NCBI GenBank assembly: GCA_963804955.1
Contig: CAWDSQ010000008.1
Coordinates: 32,001 to 96,000, forward strand
Direction: 5' to 3'
Length of the DNA: 64,000 bases
Source of the DNA: an uncultured delta proteobacterium
GTDB lineage: Bacteria; Desulfobacterota; WTBG01; CAIYCZ01; CAIRTM01
In this document: positions 5,113 to 23,533 of the stretch, in pieces
How positions within the stretch are numbered: position 1 is the stretch's first letter
Layout: each line of letters starts with the position of its first letter
Notes under the pieces: generated by a model
What the model was told of the DNA's origin: nothing
Seen by the model: only the letters and a program-made list of their open reading frames with translations
Databases searched by the model: none
Position numbers and translations under genes: made by a program

Positions 5113-5213
5113 AGCCTGCTTTTCTTCTGCCAATAGAAGCGCCTTGTTTTTTTAAACCCCATCCCTGCCGATACAGGGCTGAAGGGTTTGCCGATTGTGC
5201 CGGGAAAAAGCGA

Positions 5214-5242
5214 TTGACAAAACAGGCAATTTTGGTTATTTT
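5214..5242 (+). promoter_or_regulatory. Probable sigma-70 promoter of tRNA-Asn
   Basis: TTGACA, 17-bp spacer, TATTTT, about 30 bp upstream of the tRNA. Confidence 0.5.
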
Positions 5243-5272
5243 ACTACTTTGCTTTTGTATCGATAATTCTGT

Positions 5273-5348
5273 TCCCCAGTAGCTCAGTCGGTAGAGCGGG
5301 TGGCTGTTAACCACCATGTCCGTGGTTCGAGTCCGCGCTGGGGAGCCA
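5273..5348 (+). tRNA. tRNA-Asn (GTT)
   Basis: 76-nt cloverleaf: acceptor TCCCCAG/CTGGGGA, D arm GCTC/GAGC, anticodon loop CTGTTAA, GTTCGA T loop, encoded CCA. Confidence 0.97.
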
Positions 5349-5353
5349 ACTTT

Positions 5354-5386
5354 AAAAGCCCGGTTCCGTTAAGGAGCCGGGCTTTT
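5354..5386 (+). terminator. Intrinsic terminator after tRNA-Asn, probably bidirectional
   Basis: AAAAGCCCGGTTCC-loop-GGAGCCGGGCTTTT. Confidence 0.85.
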
Positions 5387-5417
5387 CTTGATTCCAGAGT
5401 CAGTGTGAGCAAAGAAC

Positions 5418-5756
5418 TTAGAGGAATTCTATTTGGTTTTTGATAGCGTTTTTTGAAGAGCGTTGTAAAAAAGTTAACAGCCTGCGAAGGGTTTCTCCAA
5501 TCGGAAGGTGTTTTGAAACAATAATACCAAAATGCTCCCTGCCGCTACCAAGGTATTCGTTATGCAGCAGAACGAAATCTTTCACATTATAGGTAACCAG
5601 GCATCTTCCTTGCTTTGCCGAAAATTGTAGTTGCTCATCATCCGACTTGCCTTTTTGGCTTAGTTCTTGAGCGTGATACGCATCGTAGCCTCTCTGGCGA
5701 AGAGCATGTGCTACAGCAAGCTGCACATCTTCATCCAGCAGCAGTTTTATCTTCAT
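5418..5756 (-). CDS. DUF5615-family PIN-like toxin
   Basis: LLLDED...LRQRGYD...GKSD.E.L..S...GRCLVTYN.KDF; overlaps the upstream DUF433 gene by ATGA. Confidence 0.85.
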   Translation of the reverse strand: MKIKLLLDEDVQLAVAHALRQRGYDAYHAQELSQKGKSDDEQLQFSAKQGRCLVTYNVKDFVLLHNEYLGSGREHFGIIVSKHLPIGETLRRLLTFLQRSSKNAIKNQIEFL

Positions 5757-6064
5757 GCGCGCGCTTTCCGTTTTGCCGGGCTGCGCCCTCCTTGTTTTTT
5801 CCAGAAAGCAATATCTGAAGATTCTTTTATTTCACTATCCAGTTCTTTTTGATGGTCAAAATAATATGCAAGAGCGGAATGCACTTGTGCGGAAGTAAGA
5901 TGAGATAGATTTATAAGAATCTCATCAACGCTCATCCCCATCTGGTAATACTCGGCAATACATCTAACGGTAATTCTTGTCCCCTCAATTACAGGTTCAC
6001 CATGAGCAATATCATGCCGGAATATAATGTAAGGATATGTTATTTTTGCAAGAGCTTTACCCAT
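5753..6064 (-). CDS. DUF433-family antitoxin
   Basis: GEPVIEGTRITV...GMSVDEI....HLT.AQVHSALAYY. Confidence 0.9.
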   Translation of the reverse strand: MGKALAKITYPYIIFRHDIAHGEPVIEGTRITVRCIAEYYQMGMSVDEILINLSHLTSAQVHSALAYYFDHQKELDSEIKESSDIAFWKKQGGRSPAKRKARA

Positions 6065-6112
6065 AACAAATATCTCCTTAATAATTTATCAAATCCGTTG
6101 AATTGCTGACGA

Positions 6113-6379
6113 CTATTTTTTTTGCCACTGAGCTATGTTCTCCATGTCGGCACGATAGTCCTGAAGGTCATACTGCCGTTCGATCTGCTTATTGCCGAGA
6201 AAAAAATGGAAATCGGTCTTGGTCATATTGGCCAGTTTCCGCGCACTGCCCAGTGACAGCATCCCTTCTTTGTAAAGAGCAGCCGCCAACTCTTTCCTTA
6301 TGGTATTTTTGAGTTTATGTTTTGGAATTTTTGCTTCCAGCAAAATCTCATAAGGTACATCTATTACAATACTGCTCAC
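6113..6379 (-). CDS. UPF0175-family HTH protein (orphan antitoxin-like)
   Basis: ELAAALYKEGMLSLGSARKLANMTK.DF; GTG start 6379 with AGGAG upstream. Confidence 0.75.
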   Translation of the reverse strand: MSSIVIDVPYEILLEAKIPKHKLKNTIRKELAAALYKEGMLSLGSARKLANMTKTDFHFFLGNKQIERQYDLQDYRADMENIAQWQKK

Positions 6380-6561
6380 GGTGAGTCTCCTTTCAATCGA
6401 ACCGGCAGGGCACTGTTGAAATAAACCTTGATTTTTCCGGCTATTACATCCCAAAGACCTATAATGCAGTATAGAAAGCAGCGGCTTATGTGTCAATCAA
6501 AAGATGTGCAACGCTCCAGAGCTACTTTGAAAAACGATGTTGGGAAAATTAAAGCGTTACT

Positions 6562-6642
6562 GTAATCTCCCCGTGCCTAGACATGTCCGGGTTGGGGAGG
6601 CAAAAGTAAAAGCCCGATTCCTTTTGGAGCCGGGTTTTTTTT
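6562..6642 (+). repeat. Cassette junction copy 1 (left arm + tRNA 3' fragment + terminator)
   Basis: GTAATCTCCCCGTGCCTAGACAT, then 15/18 match to tRNA 5331-5348, then AAAAGCCCGATTCC..GGAGCCGGGTTTT. Confidence 0.85.
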
Positions 6643-6665
6643 ATGATTAAGAAAAAGGTGCAGTT

Positions 6666-6995
6666 CTAAAGAAGTGTGTGGAGCTTTGCCATGACTTCAG
6701 CAAGGATATCCTCTGAAACCCGGGCAACCAATTTTGCTTCCCGCGTCTGCCAATCGAGACTCTTGACCTGATCGCTTAAGATAACGCCCTTGATACCTTT
6801 AACATTAACGGAGACCTCAAATGGATAGCCCTTGACCTTGCTGGTAATCGGGCAGAACAAGGCAAGACCAACTCGACGATTATACTCGCGGGGAGAGAGA
6901 ACCAGTGCGGGACGATGGCCGGTTTGTTCATGTCCGCTTTGAGGATTAAACTGAAGCCAGACAATGTCGCCCCTATCCGGCACAAAGGCCGGCAT
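6666..6995 (-). CDS. mazF: MazF/PemK endoribonuclease toxin
   Basis: PDRGDIVWLQFNPQSGHEQ.GHRPALVLSP..YN...CPITS.VKGYPFEV...DQVKSLDW. Confidence 0.95.
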   Translation of the reverse strand: MPAFVPDRGDIVWLQFNPQSGHEQTGHRPALVLSPREYNRRVGLALFCPITSKVKGYPFEVSVNVKGIKGVILSDQVKSLDWQTREAKLVARVSEDILAEVMAKLHTLL

Positions 6996-7237
6996 TACCA
7001 GACCTCCTTGCCCTGGGCCGAACCAAAATCAACTTCGCCGTGGATATTTCCTTTTTTAATTTTTTTAAGCATATCTTCAAGCGCAAAGACGGGCTTCTCA
7101 ACGGGCACTATCACCAGGCGGTTGCCTTCCTCAAGTATCTCAACCTGGGATCCTTCATATAGCTTAATATCTTTGGCTACCGGGCTTGGAATCCGCACAC
7201 CCAGGCTATTACCCCATTTTTGCACAGTTGTAATCAT
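6995..7237 (-). CDS. mazE: MazE (AbrB-type) antitoxin
   Basis: VQKWGNSLGVRIP...G.EVW; translationally coupled to mazF. Confidence 0.93.
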   Translation of the reverse strand: MITTVQKWGNSLGVRIPSPVAKDIKLYEGSQVEILEEGNRLVIVPVEKPVFALEDMLKKIKKGNIHGEVDFGSAQGKEVW

Positions 7238-7256
7238 GACAAGCCTCTATGAATAG

Positions 7257-7279
7257 ATGTTTATACATAGTATATACAT
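7257..7279. promoter_or_regulatory. Palindromic operator upstream of mazE
   Basis: ATGTTTATAC-ATA-GTATATACAT inverted repeat 20 bp from the start codon. Confidence 0.55.
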
Positions 7280-7447
7280 TCAAAAAGATTATTCGTCAAT
7301 AGTGTTTTATTTAGTACCCCTCTTAGCTCTCCGGTCACAAGTTCAAATTCTTATTTGAAATTGCGTTTAGACGCTACGTTTAGTTTGCATCAGTAATGCG
7401 GAAGGGTTTTTTCAAAGTTGTCCGCAAAGAAAAATGAAAGCCTTACA

Positions 7448-7528
7448 GTAATCTCCCCGTGCCCAGATGGGGTCGTGATGGGGTGCCAATTTTAAAAGCC
7501 CGATTCCTTTTGGAGCCGGGCTTTTTTT
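7448..7528 (+). repeat. Cassette junction copy 2
   Basis: GTAATCTCCCCGTGCCCAGATGG, then 13/18 match to the tRNA 3' end, then the same terminator family. Confidence 0.85.
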
Positions 7529-7793
7529 CAAGCAGAATCAGTCTGCCGGATTTAATATCCCGGCAGGCTTTGTACATAAGTCTGTTGGGGTAACGGTCAC
7601 GTTCCTTTCCGGCGGTTTTGACAGCCCGGCCACGAGCCTGCAGCGTGTACAGATACCAGATCTATTTTTGCCTGTATGAAGTGCTTCCCGATGGCGCAGG
7701 CAGCATATACCTGTTTCAGCGAAATCCTCGCGCGGCTGCGTCCTGCGCGCATGCTGGCGAAATCGTTCGGCGCAAGCCAGGCCTCGCTTGAGC

Positions 7794-8594
7794 TTATCGC
7801 ATCATGGATTCAGCTTTTACTCCTGCATCGAGAATTATGATGTCAACCCGCCGGTTCTGCTGCCTGCCCGCCTCGCTGTCATTGCCGGCAACAGGGTAGC
7901 TTTTGCCGTATCCTTTTGAAACAATCCGATAAAATGGGACCTGCCTGCTCAGCAGTGCATTGCGCACAGCCTCTGCCCGGCGCTGCGACAGCTCAAGGTT
8001 ATAGGACTCAGAGCCGATGCTGTCGGTATGGCCTTCGATCAGCACCGAACGGTCTGTGTGCTCGCTTAAAAAAGCCGCCAGCTGGTCGATGGTGCGATTC
8101 GCGCCGGGAAGCAACTGCGCCTTATCAAACTCGAACAACACATCGCCCAGCGTCAGCACCATGCCGCGGTCGCTTTTTTTGGCATTCAGCTCCGCAAGCT
8201 CTGCCGAAAGCTTGTCTGAGCGTTTGCGCTCAAGATCGATTTCCGCATCGCGTGCTTCCAGCAGTACCTGGTTCTTTTCCCTGCCCAGCTCGGTAATGGT
8301 CGCGCCGGAGAGCTTTCGGTCTGCCACGGCCACGGCAATTTGAGCTTTGCGCTCGGCAAGATAGGCCAGGTATTTTACATCCTCGATATTTTCCGCCTTT
8401 TCGGCCTGCTCCAGGGCAAGCTCCGCGTCATACATCTCAACCTGCGCATATTCATTCACCCAGGTTTTTGCTTTTGCTGCAGTGTAGGCGCTGCGCGCCC
8501 GCAGCAGATCAGGCTGATTGGCAGGTATGCTGCTGCAGCCTGCAAGCATGGCGATAAGGATGCAGTATAAGAGATACTCAAATGGTCGCTTCAT
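7794..8594 (-). CDS. OmpA-family lipoprotein with N-terminal DUF4398-like domain
   Basis: Lipobox LAGC; DVLF.FDKA, IEGHTDS.G...YNL.LSQRRAEAV, GYG...PVA.N....GRQQNRRV. Confidence 0.9.
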   Translation of the reverse strand: MKRPFEYLLYCILIAMLAGCSSIPANQPDLLRARSAYTAAKAKTWVNEYAQVEMYDAELALEQAEKAENIEDVKYLAYLAERKAQIAVAVADRKLSGATITELGREKNQVLLEARDAEIDLERKRSDKLSAELAELNAKKSDRGMVLTLGDVLFEFDKAQLLPGANRTIDQLAAFLSEHTDRSVLIEGHTDSIGSESYNLELSQRRAEAVRNALLSRQVPFYRIVSKGYGKSYPVAGNDSEAGRQQNRRVDIIILDAGVKAESMMR

Positions 8595-8607
8595 GGCGAG
8601 CCTCCTT

Positions 8608-8997
8608 TTAGGGCTGTTGTCTTTTTTTTATCCGTTCAGCTTCACCTTGAAGCGCCTCGATGCTCTGCCGCATTTCAAAGGCATCCTTTTCCGCCTTGGC
8701 CGAAAGGGCTTTCTCCTGGGCAAGCTGCGCATCAAGCAGTGCTTGATCTATAAGCCGCTCGGCCTGTTCATACTCCTCGTCGGCGATTGCTTTTTTCGCC
8801 GCCTGGTACTTGTCTTCAGCAAACCGCAGCTCCAGTGGCGCATACGTGGAAGCATCAGCCTTGAGCGCATCATTGATGGCATATTCAAGGTTGGCCATTT
8901 TGCCTGTCGGCGCAATCCCGGCGCAGGCTCCGCTGAGCATGACCAGAATAAGGAGAACGCAACACCTCAAGTTTTTTTGCTGTACCAGCAGATTCAT
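8608..8997 (-). CDS. DUF4398-family lipoprotein
   Basis: Signal peptide ending SGAC; A.TYAPLELR.AEDK...A; usual partner of the OmpA gene. Confidence 0.75.
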   Translation of the reverse strand: MNLLVQQKNLRCCVLLILVMLSGACAGIAPTGKMANLEYAINDALKADASTYAPLELRFAEDKYQAAKKAIADEEYEQAERLIDQALLDAQLAQEKALSAKAEKDAFEMRQSIEALQGEAERIKKRQQP

Positions 8998-9103
8998 ACG
9001 GACCTCATCGCAAAATAGTTTTGGATTGCTTGATTCAGATTCAGCGCCAGAAAATTATAATTTTTTTTAATGACAGTTGCAAACACTGAGTTTTCCGCGG
9101 GTG

Positions 9104-10986
9104 CTACTTGAAGCAATCTGCGATATCTACCGTATTACTCTCCCTGACTGCCGTATACTTGCTCCACCAGAGGGCATCGATTTGTTTCAGATAGGGCTTT
9201 GTGCCGGGCGTACGGTAACGGGCGAGATGGCCGGGGCCGCCATTATAAACAGCATAGGTTGCCCGGGCAAGGTTGTCGGAGCCCCCGGTCTGAAGGTGCT
9301 CTTTTTTTGCAATCGCATAATCCCGCAGATAATGGAGCAAAATCTCGCAGCCTGCCCGACCATTGTACACGATATCTCCGGAGAGACCGGCGGGATCATA
9401 GATGCCGCGCCAGACTTTATGATTTATCTGCATAATGCCCACCGATGTGCCATTTGAGGACATGAGGGGGGTGAGCTTATTGTTTTTCCGGATAAACTGC
9501 TGCCAGCAGCTCTCCTGCCAGGCAGTGGCAAACACCATGTCGTGGAACAGGGTATGGTAGTGCGGGTCGAGCTTCTTTTTCTCAAGGGCCTCTGTTGCCA
9601 GGTTATCCAGCAGCTGCTGCACCAGGGGGAGATATATGTCAATATCCTTTTTCTCCGGCGCCCAGTTTTTCAACTTTGCATACGCATCGGTTTCTGCCCA
9701 GGCTTCCTGAAGAGACAGGCAGGCTAAAAAACCTGACGGCGCAGCGTTCTGCACGCTCATGCCGGCATCAAAATCAGGGGGAATTGACGGCGCAGGCAGG
9801 GGGGCTCCCAGGCCCAGCAGAGTGCGCAGCTCAGGATCTATGTCGGTTGAGTAGCTGACTGGGTCCTCGGCTGCCTTCGAATCAAGCTTGCGGGAAATAA
9901 TGCGCAGGCTGTCATCAGAGAGTTCAATGCCGCTGTCCCGGCCCCCCTGGCTCAGGGATATGGCTGCATCGGCGGTGGTAATAAAGCTGGTGGCATCCTG
10001 CAGCTCCCGGCCTGGCTGGGCGCCTGCGGTCATACCCATGGCTGCCGAGCGCACCTGGTCCCAGGTCAGCGCGAACAGATTCGGCAGCTGCTCCCGGGCC
10101 CCTGCGTCTACGGCACATTGTAGTTCGGCAATTGCATAGCGCGCATCAAGAAGTGCTGCCAGGCATTTTTCGCGCTCCGGCCCCGTATTCCTGCGGGCCA
10201 TGCGCTTGACAGCAAAGGTGAGAAAGGCATCCCAGCTCTCCAGCCTGCGCCGCTGTTGCTGCTGCCACATCTTTTCAATCCGCTGCTCACGTGTCGGCTT
10301 TGTGAAAGTCGGCGGAACCCTCACCTCGATCAAAACGCCACGGCCGTCAGGCGCCATTTTGAGTTTTTGTACGGTAATGGATTCGGCCAGGGCTTGTGCC
10401 TCCTCGGGTCTGCTGGGCAGCATGGTTGGCAGCAGCGCGCGCAGCTCGGCCATCGGGCTGGAGAAATCAACCCTGAGCGCTTCGATGCGGGGATACAGGT
10501 TGTTTTTGATGATGCTGTAGAGTTTCAGGTCCGGATGACCTGGAGTGCGGTTTTCATCAAGCAGCCTGTAGCCCGTAATTTTTAAGGCCGCTGAGCTGGT
10601 GGCGGGATCAAGCCACGGCTCGAGCAGATATTTCCACAAATCCTTTCCATTCACGGGAGCCCGTGCAGAGCGCCGTCCTGTATTTCGCCAAGATGAGCGC
10701 TGCCCGGCATGGTGATTTTCAGGCAGCTTTTCTGTACGTCAACATACGGCCTCGCAAGGATAAAGCGGCTGCAGCCGCCGTCTTCGTCAAGAATTGTACA
10801 CTGCTCATCGGGCTCTTTGAAAATCTGCTCCAGCAGGGGGGCTCTGATAAGGCCGGAATCAAAATAGAGCGGCACCTTAAGCAGTGTGGCGGGGCAGGCC
10901 TCAGGCGCAAACCCGAACAGGATCAGCGCCACGAGTGCACTAATTGCTGCGCAGGGAATGGTGATTTTCATGGCCGGTTCTTTCAT
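9104..10986 (-). CDS. Exported lytic-transglycosylase-domain protein (ORFs 10651-10986 and 9104-10654, probably one frameshifted gene)
   Basis: Signal peptide in the first ORF; C-terminal AWQES, SVGIMQIN and YAVYNGGPG SLT motifs. Confidence 0.7.
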
Positions 10987-11393
10987 AATGAATCAGCAAA
11001 CGGTGCATGTATGCGGGATCGGCAATGACAAAAGCCGGATTCCTTATCGATACTACATTGTTGAAGAGATGGATTCTCTCAGCAGCTTTAATAATTCCCT
11101 GAGGATGCCCTGCAAAGCTTTCTTTTATGCTAATCCTTGCGGCTAAAGGCAAGCAGCTGCTGTGTAAGGTGCTAGATGCCTGCTTTGGAATAGTGCAAAT
11201 ATAGGCCGATGGTTGTTATGAGTCAAGGTAAATGCCTGATCAGAATAACCTCGCGGGGGTGGGGTGAGGTGTGCGCTGAATATCATGTATCACAATGTGT
11301 TATGCTCTTTCTGAATCGCCAAAATTCCACAGTGCGGCTACTTGCCAAAACAATTTGCGGAATATTTCGATATGAAAAGATCAAAGACTTAAA

Positions 11394-11474
11394 GTAATCT
11401 CCCAGTGTCCAAACGGATCCGAGCTGGGGAGCCCCATTTAAAAGCCTGATTCCGCGAAGGAGCCGGGCTTTTTT
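11394..11474 (+). repeat. Cassette junction copy 3
   Basis: GTAATCTCCCAGTGTCCAAACGG, then 15/18 match to the tRNA 3' end, then the terminator. Confidence 0.85.
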
Positions 11475-11897
11475 GGTGTCTGCATGGTTTATTAACGTGT
11501 TTGTTTTGCGTTATAGCGGAACAGGGAGATACTATGTCAGCCGACAAGCGCTCGGACATTTAGCTACCCGTTCTTATTGTGTCGGCGACATAATTAACGG
11601 TTGTATGCTTGCTAAAATAAGAGAAGATCGGGTTAGGCTTGAGTGCGATGGAGAAAAGGTAAGACTTTATCTGCATTGATACAGTAACAGCGTATTTTGA
11701 TATCGAGAAGCCTTCAGGTCATGTGCCTGCGCTCGGGGAATTTGGATATATCCCCCGCAGGTGAGCCGCCCTGAGGCCTAAAGATGCATGCAACCCAAAA
11801 TTTTGATATTCCCCCCAAGGTAGTAAGATAAACTGAACGGACAGCTGTTATAAAGAAAATTTGAATGTACTTTATCAGCGTTTCTGTACTCCATAGT

Positions 11898-12425
11898 TTA
11901 CAGCCGTTTTTTTTCTAACCAGTAAAACAGAAAAAGTCCGCCGGCGATAAAAAAGAGAATAATTATCCAGGGGCTCACACCCAGCATCTGGGGAAGCGTG
12001 ATCTTTCCAAAATCCCCCCATGTTAGAAGTGTTTTTTTAAGTGCAGGATAGGCCTCAGCAAAAAGGGCTGCCCCTGCAAGCATGCCAAGCACCCCCCATA
12101 GACCATCAAGCCGACCTTCTGCAAGCGCACCCACCGATGTTCCGGGACAATAGCCAAGTATACCCCAGCCGATGCCAAAAATAAGGCCTCCAGGAATAAC
12201 AGCGCCCAGAATTGTCGGCTTAACAGAGAGTGTGGCAAGGCCGAAATCCAGTAATGCATACACGCCGATCATGCCCACCATCACGGTTGAAAACATAAAT
12301 TTTACAATGGTCATGTCCATGAAGCGCAGTGCCCCAAGCTGCCGGTCATACCGAAGCACGCTGCCGCGCTGCAGAAGAAAACCAAACAGCACGCCGGTTA
12401 CCAATCCGTAGAGGAGTGTATTCAT
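11898..12425 (-). CDS. YeeE/YedE-family sulfur-compound transporter subunit
   Basis: G.LFGFLLQ, GGLIFGIGW...GYCPGT; multiple TM helices. Confidence 0.85.
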   Translation of the reverse strand: MNTLLYGLVTGVLFGFLLQRGSVLRYDRQLGALRFMDMTIVKFMFSTVMVGMIGVYALLDFGLATLSVKPTILGAVIPGGLIFGIGWGILGYCPGTSVGALAEGRLDGLWGVLGMLAGAALFAEAYPALKKTLLTWGDFGKITLPQMLGVSPWIIILFFIAGGLFLFYWLEKKRL

Positions 12426-12955
12426 TGTTCATCCCTCCCTCTGTACAGAATTCTGGCCGTAATAACTCCTCCGATAAAAAAACAAATGAGGGCTATAAAG
12501 CCGCTGACCGCCAGCTGTGCTGAACCACTTAGGCCATGTCCCGACGGGCAGCCATCGGCAAGGCGTGCGCCGAACATTGCAATAACGCCGCCAACAAAAG
12601 CAACTCCTGCCCGTTTGAGAATGCTACCGCCAAATCGCTTGCGCCACATATCGGGAAGAGCCTGAAGTTTATACGTGCTCGAAATTTTGGACGCAATTGA
12701 AGCGCCGAAGAAAATACCGATAACAAACATCCACTGCCAGTCGACGATAGGCGCTTCCTTCATAAAATAGTCCATCGAAGCGACTCGTTCGGGGGTGAAA
12801 ATTTTTTCTATCATACCGGTTGACCGCACGAAGGTGGTTGATGTGCCGAAAAATTTTCCAGAAAGCGCAACCGATCCGACAAGAACAAGTCCGGCGAGAG
12901 CGCCTGCAAGATAAGGATTCCAGAAGCTTTCACCCTGTGTTGTCCTCATGCTCAT
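12422..12955 (-). CDS. YeeE/YedE-family sulfur-compound transporter subunit
   Basis: WNPYLAGAL, FGARLADGCPSGHGLSG. Confidence 0.85.
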   Translation of the reverse strand: MSMRTTQGESFWNPYLAGALAGLVLVGSVALSGKFFGTSTTFVRSTGMIEKIFTPERVASMDYFMKEAPIVDWQWMFVIGIFFGASIASKISSTYKLQALPDMWRKRFGGSILKRAGVAFVGGVIAMFGARLADGCPSGHGLSGSAQLAVSGFIALICFFIGGVITARILYRGRDEQ

Positions 12956-13169
12956 TATGGCCTCCCTTCAAAATAGTATTTTGTTTCCGGCCTCCCCGCC
13001 TCATAAAATTCCCTGCAGCCCGTATGGCGGTTGCATCCTGACAGGTACCGGCTTCGTGGGAGACTGTCCATACATATACGGTTTTGTAATGTGCAAAACA
13101 TTTGCCCTGTAATGACCATGCTGCCTGTTCGGTCAGAATCAAAACCGGCAATCCGTTCACAGGTAAGTA

Positions 13170-14516: not shown

Positions 14517-16078
14517 GCCGGTTGATCTCCTGTTGGCTTGGCCGGGAATAGTATAGTGATTAAAAGAATGCCGCCGTCCGCCGGCTGTATGGCAAGAGTC
14601 CCGCCGTGCTCCTGAACAATGCGCCGCACGATGGCAAGGCCAAGGCCCGTGCCGTCCGGCCTGCCGGTAAAATAGGGCTCGGTGATCCGTGCGACTGCTT
14701 CCCCGGGCAGGGAAAAGCCGCCGTTGGTCATCGCCAGGCGAATGTCACGGCCCAGGTCGTCTATGACTATCTTTATAAATCCGCCACGGGGCTGGGCTTC
14801 CATTGCGTTTTTGAGGAGGTTTTCAATGACCTGCTCGATCAGATCCTGATCTCCGGAAACAGGCCGTGCCGAATCAGCCACAAGCTCCACGCTGATGCCC
14901 TGCTGCCGGCAGCGAGCCTCGTAGAGCCGCAGCACTTTTTCAACGCTGCGGTCAAGCCGCACGGCATGCCGCACCAGGGCGCGAGGCACAGCATAGCTCA
15001 GCAGATCGCTTACAATGCCGTTGGTCCTGCGAACGGCGTCACGCATGATCTCAAGCAGGGCCAGGTTCTCACCACTCAGTGCCGGCGCTTCTTTCTGCAG
15101 GCGCTGCAGTCCCATGCTCAGGGCGTTCAAGGGGTTTCGTATCTCATGCGCGATTGCGGCCGCGGCTTTTCCCAGTGCCGCATCCTGCCGTTCGTCAGCG
15201 ATCTTTTTTTCATATGCGCTGATCTGCGCCAGATGCTTTGCCTGCTGCCGGTACAGCACAAGCGACAGCACCAGCCCCAGGCAGGCAACCGCTGCGCTGA
15301 AGCCGATAAAATCGCGCCACAGCCGCTGCATGGCCGTTTCAAGATGCGCGGCATCAAGGCCTACCGTCATGCCGGTTTCGCCCACGGTCATGTTCACTTC
15401 AGCAACCGCCGCAGGGCCGCTGCCCATAAGTTCGACCTGCTGCTCACGCCCCGTCTGCGCAGAGTTGTTTCCGGCAGGCATCGTTCTGATGTACCGAATA
15501 CCCGGAAGCCGCGTGATGGTAGCTATAACCGCTTCAAGGCCGAGCTCTTTTTGGAGCTTTTCTATCCGGGCCGCTTCAACCCCTACCAGCACCCATCCTC
15601 CCTTGTTCGAGTCGGGCCAGCGCAGCACATATAAGTGGGATGCAGCATTATACTGGAGCAACGGCGTTTTTTCAGGATGCAGAGACAGAGCTTTAGTCCA
15701 GCCTGGAGGACCTTCCACAACAGCCCCGCCGGGTCGCGCTATATATATGCCGGCCAGGCTCGCTTCACGGGCAAACCCCGACAGTTCGCCTGCGGTAAAC
15801 GGCTCGATAGCATCAAGATAGAGGATAAAGCGGGCAGTATTGCCCAGAAAGGTCTGCAGCAGTTCCTCGGACACCTGCTGCGACAGCAGCGCACCTTTTG
15901 CGCTTAACTCAATGACATTGGCGACAAGCCCTGAGGCCTCCTTGATTCTTGCGATAAAGGCATCACGCGTCACCTGCGCCTGCCATAGAAAATAGCCGAC
16001 AATGGCTGCAAACATACAGCCGAAGGCCAGCAGGTTGCTGACCCAAAGCGGCAGCGACCTACCGGCCGCCCTGGCCAC
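14513..16078 (-). CDS. Membrane sensor histidine kinase, cognate of 13170-14516
   Basis: Two TM segments, AHEIRNPL, NLLKNA, GTGLGL; start reassigned to GTG 16078 behind GGAGGAGG. Confidence 0.85.
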   Translation of the reverse strand: MARAAGRSLPLWVSNLLAFGCMFAAIVGYFLWQAQVTRDAFIARIKEASGLVANVIELSAKGALLSQQVSEELLQTFLGNTARFILYLDAIEPFTAGELSGFAREASLAGIYIARPGGAVVEGPPGWTKALSLHPEKTPLLQYNAASHLYVLRWPDSNKGGWVLVGVEAARIEKLQKELGLEAVIATITRLPGIRYIRTMPAGNNSAQTGREQQVELMGSGPAAVAEVNMTVGETGMTVGLDAAHLETAMQRLWRDFIGFSAAVACLGLVLSLVLYRQQAKHLAQISAYEKKIADERQDAALGKAAAAIAHEIRNPLNALSMGLQRLQKEAPALSGENLALLEIMRDAVRRTNGIVSDLLSYAVPRALVRHAVRLDRSVEKVLRLYEARCRQQGISVELVADSARPVSGDQDLIEQVIENLLKNAMEAQPRGGFIKIVIDDLGRDIRLAMTNGGFSLPGEAVARITEPYFTGRPDGTGLGLAIVRRIVQEHGGTLAIQPADGGILLITILFPAKPTGDQPA

Positions 16079-16658
16079 CCCGGCCTCCTCCGCTCCCGCC
16101 TGCGCCGCCTCCACCACCACCGCCTGAGCCTCCACCACCACCGCCTGAGCCACTTCCTCCGCCGAACCCGCCACCACCACCGCTTGAGCCACTTCCCCCG
16201 CCGAACCCTCCTCGGCCACCACCTCCACCGGCCCCTCCTCCGAAGCCGCTACCGTGGTTGCCGCCGCCTGCCGAACCCTTGCCCAGGCGCTGCCGAACCC
16301 CGGTCGAGTCTTGCGGGCCGGCGCCCCGTTCACCTGGCTGGCCTGCTGGCCCTTTGCCCCTGCGGTCATTGAAATATGAGTTTGATGCGGAAAAACGACC
16401 GGTGCTTTTATCCATAGAACCCCATACCCGGACAAGCGCGTTCTGCTGAGTATTTTTCGGCAGGGCCGTTCGTTCGATCGTAATGACCTTAGGTTTCTGG
16501 CCGGCATCATCACGTAAGTCGGCAGGGCCGTCGACTACTTCCATCTGAACTGTACCCTTGTCCTGATCAATGGAGATGACCCGGCCGAGTATCAGCTCTT
16601 CGGCGCTGCAGTACGAGATGCACAGCAGTGAAATTAAAAATACCAGGAAAAACCGCAT
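16059..16658 (-). CDS. Exported protein with a long Gly/Ser-rich C-terminal tail
   Basis: Signal peptide, a beta-rich domain and about 60 residues of GGGS-type repeats. Confidence 0.65.
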   Translation of the reverse strand: MRFFLVFLISLLCISYCSAEELILGRVISIDQDKGTVQMEVVDGPADLRDDAGQKPKVITIERTALPKNTQQNALVRVWGSMDKSTGRFSASNSYFNDRRGKGPAGQPGERGAGPQDSTGVRQRLGKGSAGGGNHGSGFGGGAGGGGGRGGFGGGSGSSGGGGGFGGGSGSGGGGGGSGGGGGGGAGGSGGGRGGQGGR

Positions 16659-17683
16659 TGCGTCACCATCTGATGATAGAACTCAGAATTTACTTTTGAA
16701 TTGTTTTTAAGCCACGTCATTTTGCCGTAGACCTCCACCGGGCCGAAAAACCGGCTGACCTGCGCTCCCGCGAAAAACGTTTTATCAGTGCGATTCGTGT
16801 GCAGCGGGCTTTCATCATAGGCCGTGCGCCACAGCCCCGACTCAAGCTGCAGCCGCCAGACTTCGGTCATATCCCAGGTGAGACGGGTGCTTGCATGCAC
16901 CTGCCGGTAGGTTTCAAAGTCGTCGGTAGAATGAAGCCGCGAGTAGCCAGTGAGGATACTGCCGTATACTGTCGGCGTCAGAAACAGGTCGCAGATAAAG
17001 TCGCCGTTTGTCAGATGATCATTGCGCGAGGTTTTCACGACCGACAGCTCCTGCAGATCAGCCTCGGCCCCGCTGCCGCTGCCAGCCAGAGAAAGAAGCC
17101 CCGCGGCAGATGCTTCCTGGCCTTGCGGCTCGGCATAGCTGTAGGAGGAGTTTTTGTAGTTCAGGCGGCTGTAGGTCCCTTCAAGGGACAGTGTCATAAA
17201 ACGGGAATATATCCAGCTCAGCCGCAGGCCGGCAAGATACTGGTCCCGATCGTCCTCCGGCATGTAATCATCGCGGTAAGAATTCGCCTCCACAAGCAGC
17301 GCCGGCACCAGCCGGCTTCCCAATACCGGACGGGCCAGCTCGCCGCGGGCTCTTAAAAAATAATTGTCGCCCACGCGCGTATAGTTTTGATAACTGCCCT
17401 CCAGCAGACCCATAAAACTTGCGCCACCCCCAAGCTGCCAGGTATCGGACATGCCGGCCCGATGGAATATAAAGCCGGAGCCTTTCCGGTTATTGGTCTG
17501 CGCGGGGTTGTCATTATATCCCGCAGACGTCTCCAGGCTGAAATCTGCGCAATCAGCGACTGATGGCCATGCATACGACATAAACACCAAGCTCCCGCAG
17601 ATGAGCACAAGCAGCCTCTCCCGCCAAATGCCTTTTTCTATCTGCTCAGATACTCCGGAAATTTTTTTCGTAAGGCTCGCCAA
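16634..17683 (-). CDS. Putative outer-membrane beta-barrel protein
   Basis: Signal-like segment, GYNDN start motif, alternating amphipathic strands, C-terminal aromatic SWYF; exact start uncertain. Confidence 0.6.
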   Translation of the reverse strand: MASLTKKISGVSEQIEKGIWRERLLVLICGSLVFMSYAWPSVADCADFSLETSAGYNDNPAQTNNRKGSGFIFHRAGMSDTWQLGGGASFMGLLEGSYQNYTRVGDNYFLRARGELARPVLGSRLVPALLVEANSYRDDYMPEDDRDQYLAGLRLSWIYSRFMTLSLEGTYSRLNYKNSSYSYAEPQGQEASAAGLLSLAGSGSGAEADLQELSVVKTSRNDHLTNGDFICDLFLTPTVYGSILTGYSRLHSTDDFETYRQVHASTRLTWDMTEVWRLQLESGLWRTAYDESPLHTNRTDKTFFAGAQVSRFFGPVEVYGKMTWLKNNSKVNSEFYHQMVTQCGFSWYF

Positions 17684-17922
17684 AACCTGCTTGCTCCGGG
17701 GGTTCGCTTTTGTTGGCTAAAAAAGCTCTGCTCAAGGCCAGTACCGCACTCGCAAGATCCAGCCCAAAATTGTTTCTACTTTTACTTTACTGCACATGCA
17801 TTGTATTGCAATAATTATTTTCTATTGTGCAGGCGGGCGGCAAGCACGGCTTGCGAACCCCAAAACCGTGGTTGCCGCTGCCCTCTGGAACTGCACATCC
17901 GCCCGCATAGCATGCTTACTGC

Positions 17923-18444
17923 TTACTTTTTCCCGCCGTACCGGCCACCCCTCCACAGGGGTTTTCCCGTATCGGGATCGCGCAGCTGCACCTCCGTGCC
18001 GTTCACGGTGATCGTCATGGCTATATTGCGCTCAACGCCGGAAAAGTTCACCGTATAGCCGCTGGCCGACACTTCGTCGCCAACCTCCGGCCGGTCAACA
18101 TCAAGCTTGTCCCAGTAGCGCACAGGGCCGATGCCGTACACGGTAGCATTGTCTTCTGCCGTTGCAATCACCATGCCCTGGCCGTAGCCTATGCTGATAA
18201 CAGTTCCTTCATACACAAAAGGCGTTCCTTCAAGAATACCCTGGGCTATTCCGCTGTAGTTTGCCTGCGTGCAGGTGCCGTTGCCCTGTCCGCCATTTGT
18301 GCCATTATACTGCTGGCCGCCCTTGGTGCCGTTACCATTGCCGTCGCTGCCATTGCCACCATTACCATTGCCGGCATAGCCTGAACCTGCTCCGATCAGC
18401 ACCGCCAGAGCAATAATAAAAGCTGTATATAAGGTCTTTTTCAT
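17923..18444 (-). CDS. Exported protein with GNG-rich linker and probable OB-fold domain
   Basis: MKKTLY signal peptide; GIGP..YW.......VGDEVSASGY...LRD..TGKPLW. Confidence 0.6.
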   Translation of the reverse strand: MKKTLYTAFIIALAVLIGAGSGYAGNGNGGNGSDGNGNGTKGGQQYNGTNGGQGNGTCTQANYSGIAQGILEGTPFVYEGTVISIGYGQGMVIATAEDNATVYGIGPVRYWDKLDVDRPEVGDEVSASGYTVNFSGVERNIAMTITVNGTEVQLRDPDTGKPLWRGGRYGGKK

Positions 18445-18570
18445 TTTATCTCTCCTGTTTTTTTGTTTTTCATTCACCGATTATTAAACTCTTTCTGGCT
18501 TTTTCACTATTCATCTTCCGGGGGGCATCACCGTCCTTTCTCACAGTCAACGATTCTGCCCATTTGTCAT

Positions 18571-18673
18571 TACACGAATAATGCCAAAACATTTTTCATG
18601 TTTTTTCAGCAAGTTGCAATAATCGGCACTAAGCCTTTTCGACAATCATTGTTTTCACCCGACAAAATTGTCG
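18571..18673 (-). promoter_or_regulatory. Possible sigma-54 promoter with upstream palindromic activator site for the 18444 operon
   Basis: Minus-strand TGGCATTATTCGTGTA (18571-18586); CGACAA-AA-TTGTCG at 18660-18673 plus a weaker copy near 18640. Confidence 0.4.
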
Positions 18674-18860
18674 AACAGTAGGATTTTGACTTCTCACTAC
18701 AGTAAAGGTTCAGCATACTTCTTTTGGAGAATACTTTTCAACTTGCCAGTTATGTATGGTGGTTCGATCAACCCCCAGCTTTTCAGCTGAGTGACAGTTG
18801 ATGGTATCCTTTATTTGAAGGGGTTTTTTAAAGGCGAAGAAGGCAAATTAAAGGGTTACG

Positions 18861-18940
18861 GCAATCTCCCCGTGCCCGGATGTGTCCGGGGTGGAGAGCC
18901 AAATTTAAAAGCCCGATTCCGCAAGGAGTCGGGCTTTTTT
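18861..18940 (+). repeat. Cassette junction copy 4
   Basis: GCAATCTCCCCGTGCCCGGATGT, then 15/18 match to the tRNA 3' end, then the terminator. Confidence 0.88.
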
Positions 18941-19155
18941 ATTCATAATGCCGCTGTTTTTAAGCTCGTAAGAATGGAAAAGCAGACCGATTATATATTT
19001 GTCAATTTATTTCCTTTCTTCCCCGCGCCTGAAGGGCTGCTTTCCTCGGAGGTTGTGAGAAGGGGGGCGCCATGCTATATTAACAGCAATTGGGTGGTTG
19101 ACCCGTAACGCAACAAATTGCGAAATGCGCATATCAACAGAGAAAGGAATAAGGC

Positions 19156-19433
19156 ATGAAAAAAGTACAAGAATTGATCATTCTTTGCGTTGCCGCTATC
19201 TTTATAGCGGCTGCAGGATTCAGCAGTGAAGGCAGATGTGACGAGCATCCAAAAGCAGACCATCCGGCTGTCGAAGCACCAAAGGCTGCTCCTCCACAGG
19301 CTGAACAGCCTGTTGCGGACCAACCAAAGGCCGACCAACCAAGGCCGACCACAAAGCTGAGCACCCCAAAGCTGAACATCCACAGGCAGAACCTCCCAAG
19401 GCCGACCATCCGTCATCGGAACATCCGCGATGA
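19156..19433 (+). CDS. Small secreted protein made of (K/Q)A(E/D)(H/Q)P pentapeptide repeats (apparent frameshift near 19340)
   Basis: Signal peptide, then DEHP KADHP..QAEQP VADQP KADQP; the shifted frame continues KAEHP KAEHP QAEPP KADHP SSEHPR to a stop overlapping the next ATG. Confidence 0.65.
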
Positions 19434-20819
19434 TGGTAAGGTCTGTGAAGCGTCAGTTGACATGCCTCTCGGCATGCGGCTGCCTGTTTGCACTGCTGGC
19501 GGCCCTTGTTGTAGCTCAAGGCTCTATCCGGGAGGCATGGGCGGTCACGGAGAGCAAGCCTGCCGCCTCCGCTCTGCCGGCCGTTGTGACCGCTGATATT
19601 CAGGCCGGCATCGAGCGCCACATCGAGCAGCAAGCGCGCCTGGGTGAGGGCTACTTTCGCCTGCAGTTCAAGGATCGTGAGCTGCGGCTGAAACTGGTGC
19701 GGGTACACACCGAGTATCTTGCAAACCTGGGTCCCCGGCGGCATTTCGCCTGCGTTGACCTGGCGGATGTGAGCGGCGACGTGTACGACGTTGATTTTTT
19801 CCTTTCGGGCGATCCCGGCTCCATGACCGTTACCGAGACGACCGTCCACAAGATAAACGGTCAGCCTTACTACGCGTGGGAGCAGAAAAAGGACGGGACC
19901 TGGCACCGGATACCCATCGAGCGCGCATCGGAAGGGCATTTCGGCGTTATCCGTGAGCGAGACAACTTTGAGTTCAAGTATTGGGCGAGGCTGCCGGAGC
20001 TGACAGCCCCGGCGCGCATGTGGCTTCCACTGCCTGAAACGGACCGGTTCCAGACGATTGAAATTGTCTCTATGCTGGTTCCCGGCAGGCAGCGCATTGT
20101 TCATGACCGCAAGCACGGCAACCGCGTGCTGATTTTGGACCTGGCTCCTGACGACAGCGGACGGGACAATCGATATCCGTTTTGCAGTGCGGCGCAGCGA
20201 GAAATCCGCCTATGCAGCGCCGAAACCCGAGGAAATGCACCTGGCGCCTGACAGGCTCGTGCCTATCACCGACGAGTTTCAGGCAACGGCGCGCACGGTC
20301 GTCGCCGGCAAAAAGGAAGACCTCGTGCGGGCCCGTGCGCTCTACGATCATGTGATAGACCGCATGCGCTACATGAAATATGGCGATGGCTGGGGCAAGG
20401 GGGACGCCGTCTACGCCTGCAGCATTCGAACCGGCAATTGCACGGATTTTCATGCCTATTTCATCGCGCTGGCCCGGTCGATCGGCCTGCCGGCGCGTTT
20501 CGCGATAGGAGCAGGCATCCCCTCCGAGAGAAACGACGGCGGAATAGACGGCTATCACTGCTGGGTAGAGTTTTATGCCGATGGCAAGTGGTGGCCTGTG
20601 GACATCAGCGAAGCAGATAAGTATACAGCCCTTTCAACATATTATTTCGGCCATCATCCGGCCAACCGTTTCGAATTTAGCCGGGGCCGTGATTTGGAAG
20701 TTGACCCGCTTCCGGCATCGGGACCGATCAATTTTCTTGCTTACCCTCTGCTGGAAGTTGCAGGACAACCGGTCAGGGCCGACGTCGCGTTTTCGTTCAA
20801 GAGAACGGTTCAGCATTAA
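19430..20819 (+). CDS. Exported transglutaminase-like protein (ORFs 19430-20251 and 20187-20819, apparent frameshift)
   Basis: Catalytic triad motifs GNCTDF, YHCWVEFY and WWPVD; N-terminal signal peptide. Confidence 0.8.
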
Positions 20820-20842
20820 TGGGGGCTTAATTTAATCGAACA

Positions 20843-20923
20843 GCAATCTCCCCGTGCCCGGATGTGTCCGGGTTGGAGACCCAAAATTAAAAGCCCGACT
20901 CCTTGCGGAATCGGGCCTTTTTT
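20843..20923 (+). repeat. Cassette junction copy 5
   Basis: GCAATCTCCCCGTGCCCGGATGT, then 14/18 match to the tRNA 3' end, then the terminator. Confidence 0.88.
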
Positions 20924-21165
20924 CTTTTAAAGCCACGGACAAAACAGGGGGAACATTGTTGCATGTGTCGAATTACCAGCATTGCAGCCAATGCCTTGAA
21001 AATTGCCGGGGCATAACCGGGGCAGCCCTGGTGCTGCAAAAGCGCGCACAAAGTTGGGCGGTAAACGAGGTGGATACAGGTAATCAAACAGACCCTGTCA
21101 AAAATTTTACTGCAGCCTTAAAAAATTCCTCACGAGATGCTGCATAAAATCAAACAGGGCACAGG

Positions 21166-21826
21166 TCAATCCATGACACAACGCACACTAATGCCGTAGT
21201 CCTTGGTTACGCCTGTATAGTCCCTTAAAATTCCGCTCTGGGTCATATCCAGCATCATGGTCCAGGCGTGGGTGTCGTCGTACTCAGTAGAGGTCCAGAT
21301 CATGATGTGGTACCCCAGCATTTTAAAAGTGCCCGCAGGATTACGGTTACCGCTTGGCAGAGCGGAAAACCCGCTTGAGTTTGTGGCTCCCGTATTAGGG
21401 CTGTGCCACAGGCCGGTTCCGGCTTCAATTGTTCCGGTTGCTTTCAGCCTCCCACCGGCAATTTTGCTTATTTCAAATCCATCGTTTGGCTCCGAGCGAG
21501 GGTCCAAATATTTTACAAGGGTTGACCACTCCTCGTCACTTCCCAGGTGCCAGCCGGCAGGGCAGGCAGTCAATGCTGTTTCCCAGTCATAAAGCCTGCC
21601 ATAGGTTTCGCAATTTTCAGGATCATCATCATAACACCAGCTGTTCCCGGTCTCGTAGTTAAGGTCCTGCGCAAGCCAGGTCTGATCTCCGAGCTTCACC
21701 GTTTTGTATGTCTGCCCATCACGTGCATCCGTCATTTCACCCAAAACGGGTTTTATTGCAACCACCGGTACATAAAAACAGAATTGCCATCATGATTAGT
21801 AAAAATGGTTTAATTGTTTTTTTCAT
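21166..21826 (-). CDS. FISUMP (Fibrobacter succinogenes major paralogous) domain lipoprotein; N-terminal frameshift
   Basis: TDARDGQTYKTV.LG.QTWLA.DLNY, YGRLYDW, ACPAGWHL, SVRC; signal peptide from ATG 21826 is in another frame. Confidence 0.8.
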
Positions 21827-21897
21827 TTTACTCCTCCCTGTTACGGCATTTTACTGAAGCCCGGCTAAATACCACACAACGTCAATCAGGGTGTATT

Positions 21898-22593
21898 TTA
21901 GTCCTTAAGGCAACGCACGGAAAGGCTTGTGGCCCTTTCCATGCTCCACTGACCTTCCTCCGCCCGGTAAATGGACTTGAGGCCGTAATCAAGGACACGG
22001 AACCAAACTTTGCTGTTGGCGTTTTCAGTAGAGGTCCAGTAGATGGCATGCCTGCCCATAACATCGCAAGAGCCATCGTCGTAACAGACACCGGCAGGCA
22101 CAGCGGAAAATTTGCTTGAGTTTGTGGCTCCTACATTAGGGTAGTTCCATAACCCGGTTTCGTCTCGTAAGTTGCCGGTTGCTTTCAGCATACCACCAGC
22201 CCATATGCTTTCTTCCACAACGCTGGAACCCGCTTGAGGGTCCGCCTTGGGATCCAGATATTTTATAAGGGTTGACCACTCCTCGTCACTTCCCAGATGC
22301 CAGCCGGCAGGGCAGGCTGTTTTCGATGCTTCCCAGTCGTATAGCCTGCCATAAATTTCGCAATTTGCAGTGTCGTCATCATAGCACTTACTTTCATCGC
22401 TCGCGTAGTTAAGGTCCCGCGCAAGCCAGGTCTGCTCTCCAAGGGTTACTGTTTGATAGGTCTGTGCATCGCGAGCATCTGTCATTTCTCCCAAAACAGG
22501 TGTAGGATCAGGAGGTGGGGTTTTTTTGCAACCACCTGCAAATAAAAATAACAAGGCCATCATTATTAGTGAAAATGTTTTAATTCCCTTCAT
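21898..22593 (-). CDS. FISUMP domain lipoprotein, paralog of 21166-21826
   Basis: Lipobox LFAGGC and the same motif set, ending SVRCLKD. Confidence 0.85.
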   Translation of the reverse strand: MKGIKTFSLIMMALLFLFAGGCKKTPPPDPTPVLGEMTDARDAQTYQTVTLGEQTWLARDLNYASDESKCYDDDTANCEIYGRLYDWEASKTACPAGWHLGSDEEWSTLIKYLDPKADPQAGSSVVEESIWAGGMLKATGNLRDETGLWNYPNVGATNSSKFSAVPAGVCYDDGSCDVMGRHAIYWTSTENANSKVWFRVLDYGLKSIYRAEEGQWSMERATSLSVRCLKD

Positions 22594-22934
22594 ATGCTTT
22601 CTCCTTGTTAAGGGTTTTATTTGCCTTGGCAGGCGTCTTTGCACTAGATTTAAAATATCAAAAATATAAATTTACGTCAATATGTTTTATGGACTCATAG
22701 AGGCTCTTTGATCTTAAATCGTAAATCTAACCTTAAATCGTAAATCGTGTCTTCGACCGTAAAACTGACCACTCAAATGACCTGACTTACAGGATTTCGG
22801 CCAGAAGCCTGGCGTTCAAACTATAGGAAAAATTTAATTTTTAAGATGTCGTGTTCAGCAAAGGGCCCAAATCAAAAGGCTTCTGAAGATTCGGAGGGCC
22901 GGTGAGAACGGGGCAATAAACAATGGCGTGGTCC

Positions 22935-23014
22935 GTAATTTCCCGTGCCCGGATGTGTCCGCGCCGGGGAGCCATATATATACTGCCGCAGCTGTAAACG
23001 AAAGCGGCAGTTTT
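22935..23014 (+). repeat. Terminal junction copy 6 (attR-like) followed by a different terminator
   Basis: GTAATTTCCCGTGCCCGGATGT, then GTCCGCGCCGGGGAGCCA (17/18), then ACTGCCGC..GCGGCAGTTTT. Confidence 0.88.
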
Positions 23015-23352
23015 GTTGTGGCGCTTGATTCTGCCGGGCTATGTCTATGTTTTGAAATACAAGCCTATCAGGCCGATTCTTTGTCGCCAGACAACCGCGT
23101 ATCGTTCAGCCTGCAGGCACACAATGATAAAGAGCGGGAGAGGACAAGGCATATCCGCAAGCAGCAGGGCTCATGGCTGCTTATATATCAGGAGCAGTGC
23201 ATCAGCCGGCCAGAGGCAATGCAGCGGGAGGAGTTTTAAAACGGGTTGTGTCGTGAAAAAATAAAAGAGATTATGGTGGATGCTCAGTCGGTAGGGGCTG
23301 CCGCGACGAATATGATGCGCCGAAAGCTTTCCATGCCTCTGCCGGTGAGCCA

Positions 23353-23499: not shown

Positions 23500-23533
23500 G
23501 TTAATAAAGATATATCCAACACAAGAGGCGAGC

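Follow-up and report, generated by a model that had tools for sequence, protein, structure and literature searches.

Integrons build one-orientation arrays of small, unrelated gene cassettes, rich in toxin-antitoxin genes, whose partly palindromic end sites measure about 60–100 nt, whose order varies and whose enzyme is encoded outside the cassettes. Helper-mobilised elements flanked by attachment (att) sites, such as the cis-mobilisable elements (CIMEs) of streptococcal integrative and conjugative elements, and Xer-dependent modules (pdif modules and IMEX, the integrative mobile elements exploiting Xer) depend on a recombinase encoded elsewhere; no helper- or Xer-dependent system is known to us in which six or more modules form an array behind a tRNA. 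Here, we describe six blocks of genes stacked behind the tRNA-Asn gene of an uncultured delta proteobacterium and separated by copies of one junction. They lie in a 64,000-nt window (positions 32,001 to 96,000 of contig CAWDSQ010000008.1, assembly GCA_963804955.1), to which all plain coordinates refer. The tycheposons of Prochlorococcus are described in a preprint as elements stacked behind an intact tRNA and separated by partial tRNA copies, in which newcomers are thought to push older elements outward and the cargo consists of niche genes; by that account each element has its own tyrosine (rarely serine) recombinase, often with replication genes, and remnants keep integrase fragments (bioRxiv 10.1101/2020.12.28.424599).

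The array is genuine and conserved among relatives, and its behavior is that of a set of cassettes lacking a recombinase of their own. It is a variant of tRNA-anchored integrative arrays, with an unexpected link to a tRNA-targeting nuclease family. Our preferred explanation, held tentatively, is that the blocks are mobile cassettes, most likely moved by site-specific recombination inside the junction with a recombinase supplied in trans. As in tycheposons and tandem tRNA islands, elements stand behind an intact tRNA, and direct repeats of the 3′ portion of that tRNA mark the bounds of each. Unlike both, no block in any genome encodes an integrase or a remnant of one; unlike tycheposons, the blocks are as small as 0.3–0.9 kb, and every junction has an extra conserved arm that is not derived from the tRNA. 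With integrons the array shares its ordered, one-orientation layout, small unrelated cassettes with many toxin-antitoxin pairs, a repeated and partly palindromic site of about 60–100 nt, variable order and the lack of an enzyme in the cassettes. Unlike integrons, it has no intI with its attI beside it, the IntI-like gene of the genome being interrupted and on another contig; the cassettes are not single promoterless open reading frames (ORFs) in one orientation but can carry as many as six genes, which lie on either strand and come with promoters and terminators of their own; and the anchor is a tRNA gene. CIME-type and Xer modules resemble the blocks in being site-bounded gene modules that rely on an enzyme elsewhere, but no helper element or cognate integrase sharing the junction att site was found in the source assembly (4.26 Mb, 36 contigs, 87% complete).

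Class genomes (n = 42) have labels that start with G, with G000 as the source assembly and the window as G000:C8:32001-96000; C denotes a contig, L a locus and a numbered X another metagenome sample. The anchor, tRNA-Asn(gtt), is the sole tRNA in the window (ARAGORN) and the only tRNA-Asn gene in the whole assembly. Behind it six junctions, all pointing in the tRNA orientation, follow at spacings of 1254, 886, 3946, 7467, 1982 and 2091 nt (Table 1). Junctions 1 to 5 were recovered by a repeat search as a 98-nt family with 67–83% identity to the reference copy, and a 55-nt family ties these five to the end of the tRNA (5332) and adds a sixth copy, at 22958. Each junction is built of four parts: an arm (about 40 nt) that is not tRNA, the worn tRNA end, a short stretch rich in A and T, and a hairpin that has a T run. 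Table 1 lists how many of the last 18 nt of the tRNA each junction matches; a 13/18 match alone is at the chance level, with 0–10 sites of at least 13 matches in shuffled windows (n = 10) and four further such sites in the real window. One hairpin type follows the tRNA and junctions 1 to 5, and stands also behind the tRNA-Asn of relatives that lack an array; the hairpin after junction 6 differs from it, as does the DNA beyond. Two of the former hairpins and the latter one were detected by a terminator scan.

An earlier note on this DNA had reported the six junctions, their match counts and the block sizes. The places and counts are exact and the sizes fit the measured spacings; its statement that a terminator follows each junction holds for one hairpin type at junctions 1 to 5, with a hairpin of another kind behind junction 6. 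The reading of the layout as tRNA-core-P′, P-core-P′ five times and P-core-B′ agrees with what lies beyond junction 6. Junctions are crossed by no real gene and neighboring blocks are functionally unrelated (Pfam), again as the note had it. The blocks contain 2–6 ORFs each, mostly antisense to the junction, with promoter-like sites and terminators inside them, and their GC content varies from 0.44 to 0.60.

When the 4.26-Mb genome was searched with a junction profile (nhmmer), five copies were found at E values of 3e-28 to 6e-24 and, with an arm plus core profile, the sixth at 2.5e-11, all six within G000:C8:38546-54976. Beyond the array the genome has just three degenerate single copies (E 9e-5, 1e-3 and 5e-3). 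Because the six strong copies have E values far better than chance and none as strong occurs elsewhere, the junction is real and confined to the array; the genome-wide scatter that the earlier note had set against its own proposal is not seen. The degenerate copies are at G000:C14:223331-223421 (minus strand), G000:C7:423914-423981 (minus strand) and G000:C8:114871-114961 (plus strand). The first runs from an arm through a complete tRNA-Asn T arm to the acceptor 3′ strand, like a tRNA minus its D and anticodon arms; the second is about 150 nt from tRNA-Leu(caa); the third adjoins genes that neighbor junctions in G001 and G002.

Of the 42 class genomes, 9 matched an arm-plus-core sequence model of the junction (E <= 1e-4). 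The genus contributes all five of its members, two other genera contribute G013 and G007, a second family G020 and a third G034. An arm core of about 17 nt is nearly invariant in all junction genomes of the three families, and the neighboring tRNA-derived stretch drifts. Where contigs permit (G003, G002 and G013), arrays sit behind tRNA-Asn in the tRNA orientation, and the number of blocks and their content vary: there are four junctions plus a GIY-YIG unit in G003, three junctions in G013, and in G002 one junction on the tRNA contig with further ones on short contigs. Upstream of the tRNA, synteny extends from G000 to G013, which belongs to another genus; the DNA behind the tRNA is not syntenic. 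An empty site, with tRNA-Asn joined directly to the post-array genes of the window, was not seen among relatives. Genome contigs were also scanned for the exact 17-letter arm motif, which gave at least 119 stretches; among the 118 loci checked with the profile, E <= 1e-10 was reached in L019, L021, L075 and L092 only, which are or match known genomes, and the others were taken as chance.

Blocks recur as units with other neighbors. In G003, whose tRNA flank is 90% identical to that of G000, the proximal order is tRNA, cassette X (TetR, aldo-keto reductase, SDR and flavodoxin-like genes), junction, window block 2 (85%), junction, cassette Y (TetR plus RND efflux genes) and junction, followed distally by a GIY-YIG pseudogene, a partial tRNA, window block 1 (94%), two other ORFs and window block 6 (88%). 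Block 1 is there fifth in line, far from the tRNA and behind the GIY-YIG unit; block 2 has another cassette before it and is absent from G002. Homology between the window and G003 ends inside the arm of junction 6. G002 has the order tRNA, X, junction, Y, and its lone junction aligns to both junctions that flank MazEF in G003, so the two genomes differ by exactly one MazEF block and one junction; the difference, about 0.8 kb, comprises the MazEF genes, one terminator and one arm, with both edges in the junction. Cassette Y stands behind three different arms (G003, G002 and G034), but each time has the terminator type peculiar to it. Between G003 and G034 its AcrB shows 81% identity and the flank gene 44–50% (the best AcrB matches in G013 and G020 are 40–44%), and this RND-efflux cassette has therefore been transferred with its junction between families. 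The view of the blocks as units, taken in the earlier note, is thus supported by relatives: a block is found elsewhere or behind another neighbor, and one block with one junction is present or absent.

Contigs from four other metagenomes were compared at 90% likeness (24 sequencing runs, the best with 0.29 of words). In two samples the arm of junction 2 is joined to a tRNA-type core and block 1, from 7467/7468 to 5331 in X4 and from 7488 to 5354 in X3, and an X3 contig joins the tRNA terminator directly to block 2 (5383 to 6662). These joints fit different cassette orders in other strains, in contigs that cannot separate a circle from a rearranged array.

The junction could instead be a small dispersed repeat, a truncated tRNA-Asn with its terminator seeded among immobile chromosomal genes. 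Ordinary genes do adjoin the degenerate single copies at G000:C14, C7 and C8:114871 and at G003:C8 and G001:C421; some blocks hold housekeeping-type genes; and the G003 arm aligns weakly with the 5′ flank and first 15 nt of the tRNA (7 of 300 shuffles as high), like an internally deleted tRNA gene. We consider this origin improbable. A dispersed repeat is expected in many scattered copies and both orientations, but all six strong copies of G000 lie in one 17.7-kb stretch by the tRNA in one orientation, with the three weak ones elsewhere. Synteny is kept upstream of tRNA-Asn, and the blocks behind it are not the same from species to species; blocks switch neighbors together with their junctions, and the similarity of arm to 5′ flank is non-significant in the six window copies, one of seven comparisons having reached 7/300. 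The same genes in the same order without junctions between them were not seen in relatives.

Each cassette is a self-contained unit: a terminator comes first, then one to six genes that have promoters of their own, and last the arm joined to a worn tRNA 3′ end. If the blocks are moved by site-specific recombination, cassettes would be inserted, lost and reshuffled by recombination within the junction, perhaps through circular intermediates, by a recombinase that would act in trans from a gene outside the array and not recognizable in the 87%-complete assembly. The tRNA end and its flank would serve as the chromosomal partner. The arm, better conserved than the tRNA-derived part, may be the side of the site to which the protein binds. 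Three features count for a site-specific recombinase in trans: an att layout of the classical kind, one orientation for all junctions, and the nearly invariant block of about 17 nt in the arm. An IHF-like site in the arm is a weak lead only, 5 of 26 aligned rows fitting the consensus as judged by eye.

Among 22, 42, 74 and 37 ORFs scanned in and around arrays, about 170 in all, none belongs to a recombinase or transposase family. PF00589 was searched for in six frames and through stops; seven places in the genome matched, none of them in or beside the array. This agrees with the earlier note, which had described the array as integrase-free and had said that integrase pseudogenes inside each block would refute its proposal. 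Arrays of eight other genomes and contigs also contain no integrase or fragment. Elsewhere in G000 there are Xer-like genes at C20 and, split, at C35, three Y1-transposase matches and three other GIY-YIG matches; no reverse transcriptase match was obtained in G000.

Several results weigh against a trans-acting site-specific recombinase. No candidate enzyme was found. The tyrosine recombinases that the earlier note had wished to see listed were followed up by distribution in two cases, and neither tracks the junction: homologues of a small tyrosine recombinase at G000:C8 are in junction-free genomes and missing from most junction-positive ones, and an integron-type integrase at G000:C32, into which about 670 nt are inserted, has homologues that likewise fail to follow the junction through the 42 genomes. 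No serine recombinase (resolvase) match was obtained in G000. Among the PF00589 matches listed, integrases lie beside tRNA-Asn only in the junction-free G025 and G037. One arm variant is in 5 of 6 junctions of G000 versus 4 of 22 copies elsewhere, which resembles gene conversion, and wear is independent of position, junction 6 matching the tRNA at 17 of 18 positions and junction 2 at 13. Degenerate single junction copies adjoin ordinary genes (purC in G001, and an aroK-aroC fusion in a G013 block). In G003, a junction is lacking to the right of block 1 and to the left of block 6, and homology ends 33 nt before junction 1 and resumes 188 nt after junction 5. A 1.3-kb indel inside cassette X (G002 versus G003) is not bounded by junctions. 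There is no fixed crossover: in the case of X the variable core follows the left cassette, the two MazEF copies have unlike cores, and in two genomes the core seems tied to Y. The role of attI that the earlier note had assigned to the tRNA is likewise only partly upheld: the layout suits it, but the distal junction is the best match to the tRNA and the proximal ones are worse, the core tracks neither side consistently, and the G003 blocks are one-sided.

The integrase of C32 (G000:C32:99791-101287; L140:5792-7288, minus strand) has the extra segment of the integron family, and the DNA that splits it is A/T-rich. A weak arm-like copy at G025:C246, after a secretion-ATPase-like gene and 3.3 kb from an Xer-sized recombinase, was judged uninformative.

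Could the array be the wreck of six successive integrase-bearing islands at tRNA-Asn, whose integrases and most other genes were later deleted? A tandem layout with partial tRNA copies is expected from repeated integration and is reported for tycheposons (bioRxiv 10.1101/2020.12.28.424599), and within the same class G025 and G037 have integrases next to tRNA-Asn. The reading is nevertheless unlikely. No integrase fragment was found in the array or in those of the eight other genomes and contigs, the blocks are as small as 0.3–0.9 kb, the same non-tRNA arm recurs across families, and the same small blocks are intact in other positions.

The distal end of the array holds a feature that lay just outside the range of the earlier note and was missed by it, a frameshifted and shortened GIY-YIG pseudogene of the bacterial Slx1-like kind, at about 23040–23240, which opens a nuclease-based rival to site-specific recombination. 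The pseudogene is 59.5% identical to the G023 copy over 42 residues, with its first motif in a second frame. About 40 nt past it is a scrap of the tRNA D arm, where intact GIY-YIG units hold a leftover partial tRNA. The pseudogene and the scrap, both past junction 6, show that the array ends in a relic of a tRNA-targeting nuclease unit. A GIY-YIG unit, that is a nuclease ORF between a complete tRNA and a leftover copy, is present in the window only there and in degraded form; intact ones were found in G007, G008 and G004. Homologues of about 90 aa stand directly behind tRNA-Asn on the same strand in four genomes (G007:C135:7134-7409, G008:C145:35749-36033, G015:C17:296-589 and G023:C115:691-948), and the arrays of G004, G003 and three metagenome contigs contain others, intact or broken. 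Behind each lies a remnant of tRNA-Asn that reaches from the D or anticodon arm to CCA, and several of the ORFs stop at a triplet within the copied anticodon loop. In the simplest history the GIY-YIG unit would have entered first, with cassettes later placed between it and the tRNA.

The proteins are bare Slx1-like domains of about 90 aa without a DNA-binding domain, nearest by sequence to solved UPF0213 proteins and SLX1; they belong to the bare "bacterial Slx1-like" group described in an account of the GIY-YIG superfamily (PMC1564403). Among 80 metagenome relatives (L155–L234), of which 73 could be judged upstream, a tRNA on the same strand lies within 600 nt upstream in 45; these are tRNAs for Asp, Pro, Asn, Ala, Gly, Met, His, Leu and Thr. 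A second copy of the same tRNA, partial or whole, is behind the ORF in 26 of the 45 (local alignment score of at least 45, without a shuffle control), mostly spanning tRNA position 8–18 to the 3′ end. The unit looks like a tRNA-targeting homing-type element. Phage T4 SegB, a free-standing GIY-YIG homing endonuclease, has its gene in a tRNA gene region (PMC2330249, PMC13096335). As in those accounts of SegB, a GIY-YIG gene is found among or behind tRNA genes and break repair can carry flanking DNA; unlike SegB, the units here encode a bare domain of about 90 aa and are chromosomal, and arm-bearing cassettes are absent where such genes stand at other tRNAs. The limited literature searched gave no account of a GIY-YIG gene enclosed by two copies of a tRNA, nor of arrays at tRNA-Asn that lack integrases. 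Two published elements proved to be different things as far as their reports go: the "multicopy" element at tRNA-Asn of Geobacter metallireducens (PMC2700814) repeats the 5′ flank together with the 5′ portion of the tRNA, in two copies, and is not the junction, and the mutant tRNA-Asn of Pelobacter carbinolicus (PMC3543383) is unrelated.

Homologous recombination between the junction repeats of about 60–100 nt, perhaps begun by a tRNA-targeting GIY-YIG break at tRNA-Asn or at a junction, is thus a possible rival, although a less probable one than site-specific recombination. In a homing-like step the break would be repaired from a donor in which two junctions flank extra DNA, and no integrase would be needed. 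The relic that closes the window array points this way, as do the GIY-YIG copies in other arrays and behind other tRNA-Asn genes, the association with tRNAs and their second copies in the metagenomes, the likeness of the protein to UPF0213 and SLX1, and the tandem empty units of G008, of which there are at least three. The variable crossover, the homogenised-looking junctions of G000 and the wear that does not follow position also suit it. Against it, GIY-YIG units at other tRNAs have no cargo arrays within 1.5–6 kb and no conserved arm, and six of the nine junction-positive genomes (G000, G001, G002, G013, G020 and G034) have no intact homologue at E 1e-5. Short, divergent repeats are a poor substrate for RecA-type recombination, and the junction repeats are short and 67–87% alike. 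A homology search alone leaves unexplained why the arm is conserved above the rest of the repeat, and the strict single orientation and the anchoring at one tRNA also suit a site-specific system.

The units of G008:C145 (L148) are head-to-tail truncated tRNA-Asn copies of about 64 nt with nothing between them, each made of an anticodon-loop piece, a new hairpin and the stretch from T loop to CCA. They lie between tRNA-Asn and the GIY-YIG ORF (L148:7705-7971, minus strand), with one more behind the ORF. Elsewhere, tandem tRNA-Asn pairs about 25 nt apart, the second 85–90% identical to the first, were seen at G004:C407:2690-2870 and G016:C13:132594-132775.

The junction might also act as RNA, a minihelix-like truncated tRNA ending in CCA that would close the cassette transcript and serve as a processing tag or as a priming tag for RNA copying. 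The arm holds the inverse complement of the acceptor 3′ strand, so that an outer helix can be drawn in nearly all copies (83% of cells paired), and the C14 copy keeps the whole T arm between two acceptor strands. Covariation, however, is no better than in shuffles, with 0–1 pairs changed on both sides (34 aligned copies, two registers), fold z-scores range from +0.8 to −2.5 (15 copies), the junction has no Rfam family, G000 gave no reverse transcriptase and most cassette genes are antisense to the junction, all of which makes such a role very hard to credit. At a permissive threshold, Rfam matched the tRNA alone within 4500–24000, two sub-threshold matches being taken as chance.

A bolder proposal, which we regard as no better than possible, is that the array belongs to a second gene-cassette platform independent of integrons, in which a tRNA 3′ end would capture cassettes, a minihelix-like truncated tRNA with its arm would be the cassette site, whole expression units would circulate between families, and the outside enzyme might be an Slx1-like GIY-YIG protein. 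If recombinase-less cassettes do stack, swap and pass between families at a tRNA, integron-type capture is not bound to integron integrases, and some annotated degraded genomic islands at tRNA genes may be working platforms. The system is compact and testable, with six cassettes, one 100-nt site and one tRNA. For the bare Slx1-like GIY-YIG genes, a widespread family without a function gains a testable one, on a tRNA gene with a leftover copy in many organisms.

Table 1. Features of the tRNA-Asn array by position in the window (fractions give matches to the last 18 nt of the tRNA).
Feature	Position	Strand	Basis or remark
tRNA-Asn (gtt), array anchor	5273–5348	+	ARAGORN; Rfam tRNA, 65 bits
Terminator hairpin 3′ of tRNA	5352–5386	+	Same type as after junctions 1–5
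Block 1: DUF5615 (PIN-like) 5418–5756, DUF433 5753–6064, UPF0175 6113–6496	5387–6544	−	Pfam
Junction 1: arm, tRNA-end copy 15/18, terminator	6545–6642	+	Repeat, profile
Block 2: MazF 6666–6995, MazE 6995–7237	6643–7430	−	Pfam
Junction 2: 13/18	7431–7528	+	Repeat, profile
Block 3: OmpA/DUF4398 7794–8594, DUF4398 8608–8997, 516-aa weak-SLT protein 9104–10654, 111-aa ORF	7529–11376	−	
Junction 3: 15/18	11377–11474	+	Repeat, profile
Block 4: two sulphur-transport halves, sigma-54 response regulator 13170–14516, histidine kinase 14513–16513, two more ORFs	11475–18843	−	
Junction 4: 15/18	18844–18941	+	Repeat, profile, terminator scan
Block 5: repeat-rich ORF(s), transglutaminase-like protein 20187–20819	18942–20825	+	Repeats, Pfam
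Junction 5: 14/18	20826–20923	+	Repeat, profile, terminator scan
Block 6: two paralogous Fib_succ_major genes 21166–21765, 21898–22644	20924–22916	−	Pfam, repeats
Junction 6: arm, tRNA-end copy 17/18, other hairpin 22983–23012; P-core-B′ array end	22917–23012	+	
GIY-YIG (bacterial Slx1-like) pseudogene, frameshifted, shortened	23040–23240	+	tblastx; no Pfam match at E 0.01
13-nt exact copy of tRNA-Asn positions 10–22 (D arm)	23282–23294	+	Only other copy in window

Upstream of the tRNA are a 159-aa ORF without a family and a response regulator. Block 6 owes its two paralogues to a tandem duplication (21166–22644, minus strand), whose period is 750 nt and whose copies are 82% identical. In-frame tandem repeats with a 15-nt periodicity occur in a block 5 ORF (19243–19427), and the N-terminal part of the block 4 histidine kinase has an in-frame, G/C-rich periodicity of 9–21 nt (16066–16233). 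At 606–2225 (minus strand), G000 has a single 539-aa ORF in which a PfkB kinase is joined to DUF4416; in G003, G002 and G013 the two parts are split by a TAA stop (two in G013), which may reflect a fusion or a base-calling difference.

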